Below are positions 28,018-31,015 of a DNA stretch of 48,062 nucleotides, piece by piece (position 1 is the first letter of the stretch; every line of letters begins with the position of its first letter). The position numbers and the translations under genes are program-made. The DNA lies in IMG/VR virus record IMGVR_UViG_3300049173_000036, positions 1 through 48,062 of that record. One strand, given 5' to 3'. The notes under the pieces are model-generated. The model had not been told where the DNA came from. It did no database searches and was given only the letters and a program-made list of their open reading frames with translations. The DNA is from a virus (Duplodnaviria; Caudoviricetes).

Positions 28018-28068
28018 GAGGGGTGCCCCGCGGTCGAACGCTCCCCCCTGTCCCGCCGGGCACCCCTC
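28018..28068 (+). terminator. Inverted repeat after the XRE operon
   Basis: GAGGGGTGCCC...GGGCACCCCTC, 11-bp stem with a long loop. Confidence 0.5.
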
Positions 28069-28099
28069 ACTCAGCGTTAAACAGGTCGCGCGGTATGTG

Positions 28100-28280
28100 A
28101 CAGAACCGTGTTGAAATATGCCCCCCGCACATATTCACGCAGGCCCAGGGGATGATGACTCCGCTCCAGTTTGCATATATGCGCAGGAGCGGCTCGCCGT
28201 CGCCGCTCCGTGCCCCACACTGGAGAGGCGACAGCCGCGCCCCGGTCCCCTCGTCTCCGCAAGACAGGACCGGGGCGCGG
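28100..28280 (+). ncRNA. Candidate structured RNA (multi-stem plus terminal hairpin); strand and 5' end uncertain
   Basis: Outer stem 28164-28170/28219-28225, inner 8-bp stem 28186-28193/28202-28209, 14-bp hairpin 28235-28248/28267-28280. Confidence 0.35.
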
Positions 28281-28309
28281 GCACGTCTGCACCACAGCTC
28301 GCGCCCCGC

Positions 28310-28315
28310 TAGGTT
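28310..28315 (+). promoter_or_regulatory. Putative -10 box for leaderless pirin transcript
   Basis: TAGGTT 7 nt before ATG 28323; no SD. Confidence 0.55.
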
Positions 28316-28322
28316 GTGCCGC

Positions 28323-29288
28323 ATGAGCAACCTTGACCGTGCGCCGGTACCGAGTGTCTGCGGCGGCCGCGGATTCGTCGTCGCCGAACCCGTCCGCGAG
28401 CTACTGAGTCCCCGTCACGTGAAGCTCGGCGAGTCGAGCGAGGTGCGCCGGCTGCTGCCGAACCTCGGCCGCCGCATGATCGCCGCGTGGGCATTTGTTG
28501 ATCACTATGGGCCCGATGACATCGCAGACGAGCCCGGCATGCAGGTGCCGCCGCACCCGCACATGGGCCTGCAAACCGTCAGTTGGCTGCACGAGGGCGA
28601 GGTGCTGCACCGCGACTCGACCGGCAGCCTTCAGGCGATCCGCCCGCGCGAGCTCGGGCTCATGACGTCCGGCCGCGCGATCAGCCACTCGGAAGAGAGC
28701 CCGCGCCCGCACGCCCGGTACTTGCACGGCGCGCAGCTATGGGTCGCGCTGCCCGACGCGCACCGGCACGTCGACCCGCGGTTCGAGCATCACGCCGAAC
28801 TGCCGACGGTCACGGCGCCCGGTCTCACGGCGACCGTGATTCTCGGCGACCTCGACGGCTCGACGTCGCCCGGCACGACGTACTCGCCGATCGTCGGTGC
28901 CGACCTCGCCCTCGCCCGAGGCGCCGACGTCCGGCTGCCCCTCGTACCCGACTTCGAATACGGCGTGCTCGCCATGAGTGGCGAGGTGCACGTCGACGGC
29001 GTACCGGTACTGCCCGGATCGATGCTGTATCTCGGCTGCGGCCGCAGCGAGCTGCCGCTGCGCGCCGAGTCCGACGCCGGGATCATGCTGCTCGGCGGCG
29101 AGCCGTTCGACGAGGAACTCATCATGTGGTGGAACTTCGTTGGTCGGACGCAGGCCGAGATCGAGCAGGCTCGCGCCGACTGGATGACGGGCAGCCGATT
29201 CGGCGAGGTGCACGGGTACGACGGCGCCCCGCTCGCTGCACCCGAGCTGCCGCCGACGCCACTCAAGCCGCGCGGCCGCGTGCGATAG
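28323..29288 (+). CDS. Pirin family protein (bicupin), phage-borne
   Basis: FVDHYGP, PPHPHMGLQTVSW, HRDSTG, MTSGRAISHSE, HGAQLWVALP, LLGGEPFDE...WWNFV; metal ligands HPH and HSE intact. Confidence 0.95.
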   Translation: MSNLDRAPVPSVCGGRGFVVAEPVRELLSPRHVKLGESSEVRRLLPNLGRRMIAAWAFVDHYGPDDIADEPGMQVPPHPHMGLQTVSWLHEGEVLHRDSTGSLQAIRPRELGLMTSGRAISHSEESPRPHARYLHGAQLWVALPDAHRHVDPRFEHHAELPTVTAPGLTATVILGDLDGSTSPGTTYSPIVGADLALARGADVRLPLVPDFEYGVLAMSGEVHVDGVPVLPGSMLYLGCGRSELPLRAESDAGIMLLGGEPFDEELIMWWNFVGRTQAEIEQARADWMTGSRFGEVHGYDGAPLAAPELPPTPLKPRGRVR

Positions 29289-29299
29289 CAGCTACGCGA

Positions 29300-29333
29300 A
29301 CGCCCCCGCCTGCATATCTGCAGGTGGGGGCGT
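29300..29333. terminator. Likely bidirectional terminator between pirin and integrase
   Basis: ACGCCCCCGCCTGCA-TATC-TGCAGGTGGGGGCGT. Confidence 0.75.
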
Positions 29334-29335
29334 CG

Positions 29336-29377
29336 GTGCTTTGGAGTAGTGGTCGACTGTGCACTATTCCAAAGCAC
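29336..29377. other. attP for the serine integrase
   Basis: 42-bp imperfect palindrome GTGCTTTGGAGTAGTG-GTCGACTGTG-CACTATTCCAAAGCAC (15/16 arm match), 9 bp from the int stop; central dinucleotide AC at 29356-29357. Confidence 0.8.
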
Positions 29378-29386
29378 AAACCCGAG

Positions 29387-31000
29387 CTACTCGGCAACCG
29401 GCTCGGGATCCGGCGGTGCCCACACCGGCACGACCTCGACTCGGTCGTCTGGCCACAGCTCGACCCGCCGGATAAGCGACGCCAGTGTCACCCGCTTCGA
29501 GGCGACGCTGATCGTGTCCCACTCGGCGATCAGACCGACGATCGTCTCGCGGTGCGGCACCGGGCTCGGCGGCTCGGCCGGCTGCTCGGGCCCGAGCGCG
29601 TCGAGTTCCTTCTGAGCGGTCGCGACGTCGCCGCTCAACTTGTCCCGGGTTCGCAGGTACGACTCACGCGGGATGTCTCCCATGCTGTACCCGGTCGTCG
29701 CCCGGTCGAGGGCACCCTGCAGCTTCGAGATTTTCGCTTCGAGGCGCTTCCGCTTCTTCGTGACGTCCGGCGCGATCTTCGGTTTCGGCAGGACGATGCG
29801 CCCGGACACGATCGCGTCGATCTCGTCGCGCACCTCCCCCAGCCACTCGAACACCCGCCCCTCGATCAGTACTCGGCGGATCCACACCGGCTCATGCTTG
29901 ACCAGTCCGCGCGAGCGCGGGCCGCACCGGTACGCGTACGCCCGGATGCCCTTGCAGTCGTGTGTGCGGGCCGCTGCGCGCTTCGGGTGAGTGCTGAAGC
30001 AGATACCGCACTTGGTGAGCCCGGCGAGCGGGTACACCGGGGTGAGCGCCCGCGCGGGCGTCACGCGGCGTGCCTCGCGGCGGTCGCGGTACGCGTCCCA
30101 CTCGTCGCCGGACCAGATCGATTCGTGCTCGGCGGGCCGGTAGTCGTAGTGGTCGCGCTTTTGGCACCGGCCGGGCTCGGCGCATCCGACGTCGCGTTTG
30201 TGCACGACGAGTAGGCCTGCGGGAAAGCCGCTGTCCATGTACCACTTGACGGTTTGGTCCTGCCACGGGGCGCCGCGGGTGTTGAGCAGCCCGAGGTCGT
30301 TCCACCATCGGGCGATGTTGCCGAACCCGATCTTCCCGCTGTTGTAGCGCTGTACGGCGTCGAGGGCGGGCTCGGCGTGCGGCGCGAGAACCTCGTACCG
30401 TTCCTCTTGGGTGCGCCATCCGCCCTCGCCGTCCGGGAGGACGCGCGGGTACCAGCGGTACCCGAATCGCTTCCCGCCGGTCGCCGGGAGGCCGAGGTTA
30501 CGCCGTAGCTCGTGGGTTTCTTTCCACTGCTCGCCGGCCCGGTCCGACTCGAACGCGGCGACTTCGAGCAGCATGCCGCGGGTGAAGCGGCCGACGGCTG
30601 TCTTCGCGTCGACGTCCTCGGTTGCGCTGATGAGCTCGCCGCCGACGTTCTCGATACGGGCGAGATTGATCGCGACGCCGTGCCGGTTGCGGCCGAAGCG
30701 GGAAAACTTCCACGACCACAGCTCGCGCTCGGGGCGCTCGTGGTCCTCGACGATTTCGATCGCGCGCATTACTTTACGCTTGAAGTTTCGTCCGGTTGCG
30801 TCCTCGTCGACGATCCACTCGGCGACGTAGCGGCCGCGCCGGGCGGCAGCCTCTTCGACTGCCGACTTTTGAATGTCGATGCTGATCATCTCTTCGCGCC
30901 ATGTGGATACTCGCGCGTAACCAATGACGGGAATCAGTTCCCGAGACAGGGTCACTGATTGGGGAGTCAAAGAAATCCTAGTTCCCCGGTCTATCGACAC
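29387..31000 (-). CDS. int: Large serine integrase
   Basis: GYARVS catalytic motif, SRFGRN, LISATE, recombinase domain, LAGLTKCGIC...YRC Zn ribbon, coiled coil; start GTG 31000 chosen from SD GAGGTG. Confidence 0.95.
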   Translation of the reverse strand: MSIDRGTRISLTPQSVTLSRELIPVIGYARVSTWREEMISIDIQKSAVEEAAARRGRYVAEWIVDEDATGRNFKRKVMRAIEIVEDHERPERELWSWKFSRFGRNRHGVAINLARIENVGGELISATEDVDAKTAVGRFTRGMLLEVAAFESDRAGEQWKETHELRRNLGLPATGGKRFGYRWYPRVLPDGEGGWRTQEERYEVLAPHAEPALDAVQRYNSGKIGFGNIARWWNDLGLLNTRGAPWQDQTVKWYMDSGFPAGLLVVHKRDVGCAEPGRCQKRDHYDYRPAEHESIWSGDEWDAYRDRREARRVTPARALTPVYPLAGLTKCGICFSTHPKRAAARTHDCKGIRAYAYRCGPRSRGLVKHEPVWIRRVLIEGRVFEWLGEVRDEIDAIVSGRIVLPKPKIAPDVTKKRKRLEAKISKLQGALDRATTGYSMGDIPRESYLRTRDKLSGDVATAQKELDALGPEQPAEPPSPVPHRETIVGLIAEWDTISVASKRVTLASLIRRVELWPDDRVEVVPVWAPPDPEPVAE

Positions 31001-31015
31001 TAAACCCACCTCTTT

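Follow-up and report, generated by a model that had tools for sequence, protein, structure and literature searches.

A temperate Streptomyces phage predicted to integrate into a host pirin gene carries a whole pirin with an altered attachment patch

In the stretch of phage DNA analysed here (the window; 48,062 bp, the whole virus record), an intact pirin gene lies beside the attachment site of a large serine integrase, and the question that this locus raises is whether the phage splits the pirin gene of its Streptomyces host, makes good the loss with a copy of its own, and keeps its integrase (Int) from acting on that copy. The first-pass annotation of the window had claimed all three: attB at the V-D-H-Y codons of the host orthologue, complementation by a full-length copy, and synonymous recoding of the copy. 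The reading preferred here, to which we would give a probability of about two in three, is that the phage integrates at Val59 of the host pirin, that the whole pirin beside attP likely replaces the split gene, and that the altered patch in this copy likely blocks Int.

The window encodes a terminase, portal, capsid, tape measure, endolysin, repressor, and integrase, and by this gene content is a temperate tailed phage. Its integration module is ordered as lysis-side accessory genes, pirin (plus strand), hairpin, inverted repeat, and large serine integrase (minus strand). The integrase gene (29387..31009, minus strand; PF00239 and PF07508 above cut-off; phrog_95, integrase) is given as the longest open reading frame, and its true start may lie about 20 codons inside; recombination on attP and attB is predicted, as for a large serine integrase system. 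A phage repressor (31385..31855, minus strand; phrog_3949, transcriptional repressor) belongs to the lysogeny module. A contig of the probable source run spans 29019-29613 (pirin end, attP, integrase end) with 0 differences, and a 1,315-bp contig from another study covers 28267-29568 with 94 differences; because two independent contigs bridge the region, the join of pirin, attP, and integrase is real and not an assembly artefact, and near relatives exist. An A+T-richer stretch (28067-28160), upstream of the hairpin that precedes pirin, is conserved in two pirin-less relatives (L005, L006) and may contain a leftward promoter for the accessory genes.

The pirin gene (28323..29288, plus strand) encodes a full-length protein of 321 aa with both family domains, Pirin (PF02678) and Pirin_C (PF05726), and is the orthologue of a single-copy Streptomyces gene present in 332 of 401 genomes of the genus, nearly always as one copy. 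For comparison, 73 chromosomal alleles were read (the 30 best matches, 40 chosen at lower ranks among the 150 that were listed out of 335, and 3 more), a sample that leans towards alleles near that of the window; the set numbers 74 with one Gln61 host added. The window pirin is 85-92% identical to host orthologues, has 0 changes at the 162 residues that are invariant across the 73 hosts, and has a dN/dS of 0.085 against the nearest host allele; an intact coding region under purifying selection is shown by these alignments. Residues H78, H80, H122, and E124, which we take to be the pirin metal ligands (His-x-His, His-x-Glu), are invariant and align with solved pirins such as 6d0g. PHROGs includes a 321-position family matching the window pirin, so this family has already been seen, unannotated, in provirus sets. 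In host chromosomes the gene either precedes a small TPR gene in the same direction (five loci) or diverges from it (four loci). Because this orientation differs among hosts, an inversion or relocation of pirin has taken place in some of the genus; as a marker the orientation was rejected, being variable among hosts and not decisive.

In the phage the gene is enclosed by two hairpins. The upstream one (28236..28279) is a phage-family hairpin at the phage-side border of the pirin slot; it is also found upstream of the phage pirins of two lysogens, Streptomyces sp. NBC_01511 (G002) and S. aurantiacus NPDC000061 (G403), and it adjoins attP in a relative without pirin (L006/L097), so pirin was inserted into a hairpin-attP slot. 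Upstream hairpin scores were 34-48 for the phage copies, against 26 for the best host upstream sequence; traces of the phage hairpin upstream of two host pirins (G013, G122) were rejected, their score of 26 being the shuffle maximum. The sequence TAGGTT (28310..28315, plus strand, 7 nt before the ATG) is likely the host-type -10 element of a leaderless promoter, and presumably corresponds to the Streptomyces -10 box; TA(G/A)GTT stands at the same spacing in all three phage copies (window, G002, G403) and in the commonest host upstream sequences. A sigma-70 scan gave no site for the promoter region of the window pirin. Downstream, a strong G+C hairpin (29300..29333; 15-nt arms, 93% complementary; -35 kcal/mol) is a likely two-way terminator, and similar hairpins follow pirin in the G403 and G002 phages; the three phage pirins thus occupy one slot in one orientation, between the same upstream and similar downstream hairpins.

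Next to this terminator lies attP (29336..29377, minus strand; 42 bp), composed of a 20 bp arm, a GT core (29357-29356, minus strand), and a further 20 bp arm; its 16-nt inverted-repeat arms (29336-29351 and 29362-29377) are 94% complementary. Positions 29346-29357 read GTAGTGGTCGAC, the reverse complement of which translates as V-D-H-Y, is found exactly in 52 of the 74 chromosomal orthologues, and is absent from the window's own pirin. The 12-bp match stops at the centre of the inverted repeat (29356-29357), and the re-reading of these bases agrees with the annotation, which had the match end at the central dinucleotide.

The prediction of attB at the host VDHY codons was borne out in relatives: in four other records a phage arm is fused to the Streptomyces pirin orthologue within codon Val59, at its GT. 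In an IMG/VR provirus (G001, junction L017), pirin codons 1-61 are followed by an arm that is identical at 19 of 20 bases to the pirin-side attP arm of the window; in a second record (L098) the same host 5' part is joined to an arm that is likewise 19/20 identical. Both attL and attR, which the first-pass annotation had proposed to look for in split pirins, are present in G002 and G403, the integrases of which are each 66% identical to that of the window. In G002, attR is followed by codons 59-321 and attL lies 54 kb away; in G403, attL, prophage, and attR extend over three overlapping contigs, of which the prophage contig measures 55.5 kb. In L098 (5,524-5,609) the arm lies beside the integrase of that phage, which means that the pirin site was used in the opposite orientation relative to the integrase gene. 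Scans of IMG/VR with the pirin sequence, an alignment of pirins, and patterns for attR and attL returned G001 as the sole match; no integrase match was found in this record, which stops before one. Integrase searches of 398 and 401 genomes (3 candidates scored per genome) gave no additional pirin-site lysogen.

For the window phage itself, the GT of Val59 is predicted as the target: the attP core matches 12 of 12 bases of the pirin site, the core dinucleotide is GT as at the pirin junctions, and the pirin-side arm shares 19/20 bases with the arms joined to host pirin 5' halves. A different history has to be considered, in which the integrase has since switched its target, leaving the 12-bp match and the pirin as relics. 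Contig comparison revealed no junction formed by the window phage, and the closest integrase (81%, G404) targets C-E-Q-Y-G-P in an LLM oxidoreductase gene, a site whose right half resembles that of the pirin site. The complete core match, the GT in place of the LLM-type TG, and the arm identity speak against a switch, which we consider highly improbable. At position +7 both arms of the window attP and the pirin attB have C, and the LLM-specific sister has G in its arm and its target. The expectation that related prophages share the pirin site thus held for four records and failed for the closest integrase.

Further insertions illustrate the range of targets. An 81%-identical integrase in the LLM oxidoreductase gene at C-E-Q-Y-G-P is seen in a S. 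flaveolus prophage (L018, 11,580-11,620) and in L001; the LLM and pirin sites differ in the core and at base +7 and form a natural pair for the study of specificity change. No spare LLM gene was found at the far end of the prophage with the 81% integrase. Among the other related integrases with a readable junction, two target a metallophosphoesterase gene close to its start and two have other sites. The former (L160, L161; G308 and G263, respectively) are inserted at the very start of that gene, and in L161 the phage arm provides an in-frame ATG and may restore the 5' end in the classic way. Judged by these junctions, the integrase clade changes targets readily.

With Val59 as the preferred target, the window phage would, like its relatives, integrate at the GT of that codon and split the host pirin, and the host 5' part (codons 1-62) would run 17-20 codons past Tyr62 into phage DNA and then stop. 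The identity of attP to pirin ends after 12 bp (Tyr62), and the frame in the window arm closes 17 codons on; in the attL of G403 and G001 a stop is met within 3 codons of the core. Because phage DNA closes the frame shortly after Tyr62, attP does not rebuild pirin. The contrast that had been drawn with restoration by a duplicated gene end is therefore sound: attP identity ends after 12 bp, the attL frame is truncated, and a whole gene is carried. Transcription of the phage pirin would start at its own host-type promoter, proceed towards attL, and end at the hairpin 29300..29333, which would separate it from the convergent host stub; the spare pirin would then be expressed in lysogens and might complement the split gene.

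The layout expected from integration of the window phage is the one observed in G002 and G403, where a second full-length pirin lies just inside attL, inverted, in a genome whose own pirin is split; with the intact gene of the window, these two lysogens support the claim that a full-length copy is carried. The G403 copy is intact (321 aa; same protein on two contigs in the protein collection). The frame of the G002 copy is shifted by 1 bp in a run of G near codon 226, which may be a true mutation or a sequencing error. Changes at invariant residues number one in the G403 copy (His61Gln) and three in 225 codons of the G002 copy. These copies are not sisters of the pirins of their own hosts (AU p 0.021 and 5e-5), which identifies them as carried cargo; a single clade for the three phage copies has an AU p of 0.136, by which one origin is neither supported nor rejected.

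Candidates for additional phage copies were also inspected. The second pirins of G245 and G308 were rejected, their 73-74% identity marking them as paralogues, and G046, G043, and G013 were rejected as holders of hidden prophage copies, each having one copy in surroundings without similarity to the window beyond pirin. Two database proteins are possibly further prophage copies: P0145 (S. alboflavus), which shares 99% identity with the phage pirin of G403, and P0128 (S. sp. NBC_01231), 94% identical to the window pirin with the same Gly54Ala. In G404 an extra fragment matching pirin residues 265-321 (L086, G404:C18:7453-7623) lies 29 kb from the intact gene.

Carriage of pirin is optional among phages using the Val59 site. 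The copy is present in 2 of the 3 prophages at this site with a visible attL end; none was found in G001, a 53-kb record at the same site, and none beside the similar GT-core attP of L135. Nor was pirin found in the four partial virus records (12-88% complete) with L098, L001, L091, and L100. The optional copy (G001, probably L135) would agree with a pirin carried for the phage's own benefit, as a metabolic or redox gene in lytic growth or for dosage, with complementation as a side effect, and disruption of another pirin by phiC31 disturbs metabolism, which points to pirins as physiologically valuable (PMC12924846, in the text available). Against this, each of the three phages with a pirin uses the pirin site or has a match to it, no pirin was found beside attP where related integrases have another target or a free attP site, and a prophage inside the gene cannot take a whole copy by simple faulty excision. 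Own benefit as the reason for carriage is, in our view, quite unlikely.

If the copy is a replacement, it must be compatible with the integrase encoded 860 bp from its Val59 codon. Serine integrases acting on attP and attB that face each other in cis cause inversion, which is one-way without a directionality factor. In the window the GT core of the copy (28497-28498, plus strand) faces attP (minus strand) at that distance, and an intact attB in the copy would let Int flip 860 bp, splitting the copy and destroying attP. Since a working attB would invert the segment, only alleles poorly handled by Int could persist, which would account for the atypical patch in all three copies, whether captured in that state or changed later.

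The counterpart of attB in the window copy (28477..28518, plus strand) shows mismatches to the host consensus, and codons 57-65 (28491-28517) read GCA TTT GTT GAT CAC TAT GGG CCC GAT. The patch contains TTT for one of the 7 Phe codons of the gene and GAT for two of the 18 Asp codons, neither of which occurs outside it; the earlier counts of these codons were all correct on recounting. Codons ending in A/T make up 6/9 of the patch versus 43/321 of the gene (P=2.6e-4 for the place given by the junctions; P 0.04 when any 9-codon window of the gene is allowed). All 73 hosts have TTC58, His61, and TAC62, and window-type codons are found among them at GTT59 (1), GAT60 (17), GAT65 (2), and GCA57 (0). 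Host-rare codons number 5/9 in the window patch, versus 0 in 66 of the 73 hosts and a maximum of two in any host (P 7e-4). GCA57, TTT58, and TAT62 occur in 0/74 hosts, and 3 of the 12 such codons fall within the 9-codon patch (P=0.003).

Mismatches to the host consensus within 20 bp either side of the core number 9 in the window copy versus 0-7 in hosts (n=73); within 12 bp they number 6, 5, and 5 in the three phage copies versus 0-4 in the 73 hosts. Base -4 is changed in all three copies, and -1, +1, and +7 are changed in two each. The window copy retains +7 and is changed at -4, -1, +1, +4, +10, and +13; T at +1, +4, and +10, three of these changes, also occurs in half-sites used by this integrase family. 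The predicted immunity of the window patch to Int is likely, not assured.

The copies of G403 and G002 both carry His61Gln, a non-synonymous change that alters base +7 and offers a plausible route of escape from the integrase. Their patches taken alone are not significant (P 0.33 and 0.25; ranks 43/313 and 28/217, respectively), and the combined patch P of 0.011 owes most to the window and presupposes that the copies are independent (one-clade AU p 0.136). Atypical att patches also exist in two chromosomes, each allele being sister to a phage copy. G046 (L166/L203; single copy, 92% aa identity) holds the nearest chromosomal allele, sister of the window copy at 97/92; its patch, the most A/T-rich of the 73 hosts, already has GTT59, GAT60, and GAT65, that is, 3/6 of the A/T-ending patch codons of the window. 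G169 (L208; single chromosomal copy) is sister of the G403 copy at 94/88 and has the one Gln61 allele among 301 genomes; Gln61 also occurs in 3 of 14 other listed members of the G169 protein cluster and in 1 of 120 listed homologues. The alleles of G046 and G169 may have arisen in hosts as resistance to the phage or by domestication of phage copies.

The claim of synonymous recoding has to be restated in the light of these alleles. Codons 57-65 of the window copy are the most host-deviant of 314 nine-codon windows (rank 1), which is the divergence peak that had been expected; against G046, however, divergence in the patch does not exceed that elsewhere in the gene (4/9 versus 113/321 codons, P=0.4). 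The possibility that hosts carry the same AT-rich codons is realized in G046 for three codons and in none of the 74 hosts for GCA57, TTT58, and TAT62, and the other two phage copies use His61Gln instead.

Filtering without any later tuning would accommodate much of this: the phage would have captured a host allele whose patch was a poor attB from the outset, by chance or in a phage-pressured lineage, and later changes would be neutral drift to phage codon usage. The window copy does pair with G046, and the G403 copy with the sole Gln61 chromosomal allele in 301 genomes; the GC3 of the phage copies (0.87, 0.87, and 0.78) is below the host mean of 0.915 and near that of the integrase (0.86). Yet the three patch codons missing from all 74 hosts, G046 included, exceed what the gene-wide rate allows (the P of 0.003 given above), and the direction of descent may be the reverse if the G046 and G169 alleles are domesticated. 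We regard filtering alone as unlikely, although not far-fetched. The patch would most likely have arisen in two steps, by capture of an atypical host allele and then by more substitutions in the phage, and the recoding is best read as filtering plus tuning, in which a captured rescue gene was selected to escape self-recombination. A wider and more tentative proposal, to which we would give slightly less than even odds, is that this phage clade repeatedly evolved a cut-and-rescue cassette, composed of a pirin-knockout integrase and an orthologue with a selectively disabled attB, and that hosts hold resistant alleles (Gln61, A/T-rich patch) which are donors or domesticated copies.

Serine integrases have a 2-bp core only, so that the rebuilding of a split gene is difficult, and a whole spare gene with a predicted disabled att patch would be a different solution to target loss. 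The spare gene implies that a little-studied pirin matters for lysogen fitness. The natural variants (used and escaped sites, and a sister integrase differing at +7) form a ready set for mapping integrase specificity, and with the orthologue in 332/401 Streptomyces genomes, the set of integrase, attP, and spare gene is a candidate for a self-complementing integration vector.

The nearest cultured-phage matches of the window are SV1-like Streptomyces phages (SV1, Picard, Raleigh), with 65-70% DNA identity over part of the integrase gene only; they are distant relatives of the window phage, and the window pirin matched no cultured Streptomyces phage among 50,697 records. A literature search, mostly of open papers and their main texts, gave no report of an attB at Val59 or of an entire spare gene in which the att site is changed.

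The phiC31 site in pirA is, we assume, the motif E-Y-A-P-G-E-P-K-G-T-P-W-H-P-H, and we know of no spare pirin copy for phiC31. The phiC31 target is a different paralogue, about 35% identical to the window's target and central in G002, whereas the target of the window phage is the arm-located FVDHYGP orthologue; the window therefore does not fall in the phiC31 type, with attB in the pirA paralogue. The two systems are alike in the large serine integrase, the Streptomyces host, and an intragenic pirin-family target, which in phiC31 (pirA) is inactivated on integration (PMC12924846). Most Streptomyces integration systems inactivate their target, and the phiC31 insertion in pirA disturbs metabolism, according to the accessible text of the same source, which cites Tala et al. 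2018. Gene disruption by serine integrases without a spare has been described (PMC10083194, PMC5357655, PMC11357604, each as available in part); the word 'pirin' is absent from the main text of PMC10083194.

Other systems preserve the function of their target by different means. The comK, spsM, and sigK types of regulated gene integrity (active lysogeny) likewise involve intragenic serine-integrase targets, but restore the gene by excision, which would be needless with a standing spare. A duplicated gene end within attP can restore the target gene, and exceptions to this are also described (PMC10111431, PMC7380047, in the parts available); such replacement sequences (icd, tRNA genes; pSAM2, mu1/6) likewise preserve target function (PMC10111431, PMC7380047, PMC12924846); there the crossover fuses the duplicated gene end, whereas the phage pirin is a separate whole gene in opposite orientation with its att patch changed. 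The closest precedent is found in helper-embedded PICIs, in which a captured intact late-gene homologue may be a backup (PMC10111431). These elements are satellites with tyrosine integrases that insert in prophage late genes, and the accessible text of that source makes no mention of changes to the attachment site of the captured copy; the window, in contrast, is a serine-integrase phage with a chromosomal host gene as its predicted target, and its copy has an altered att patch.
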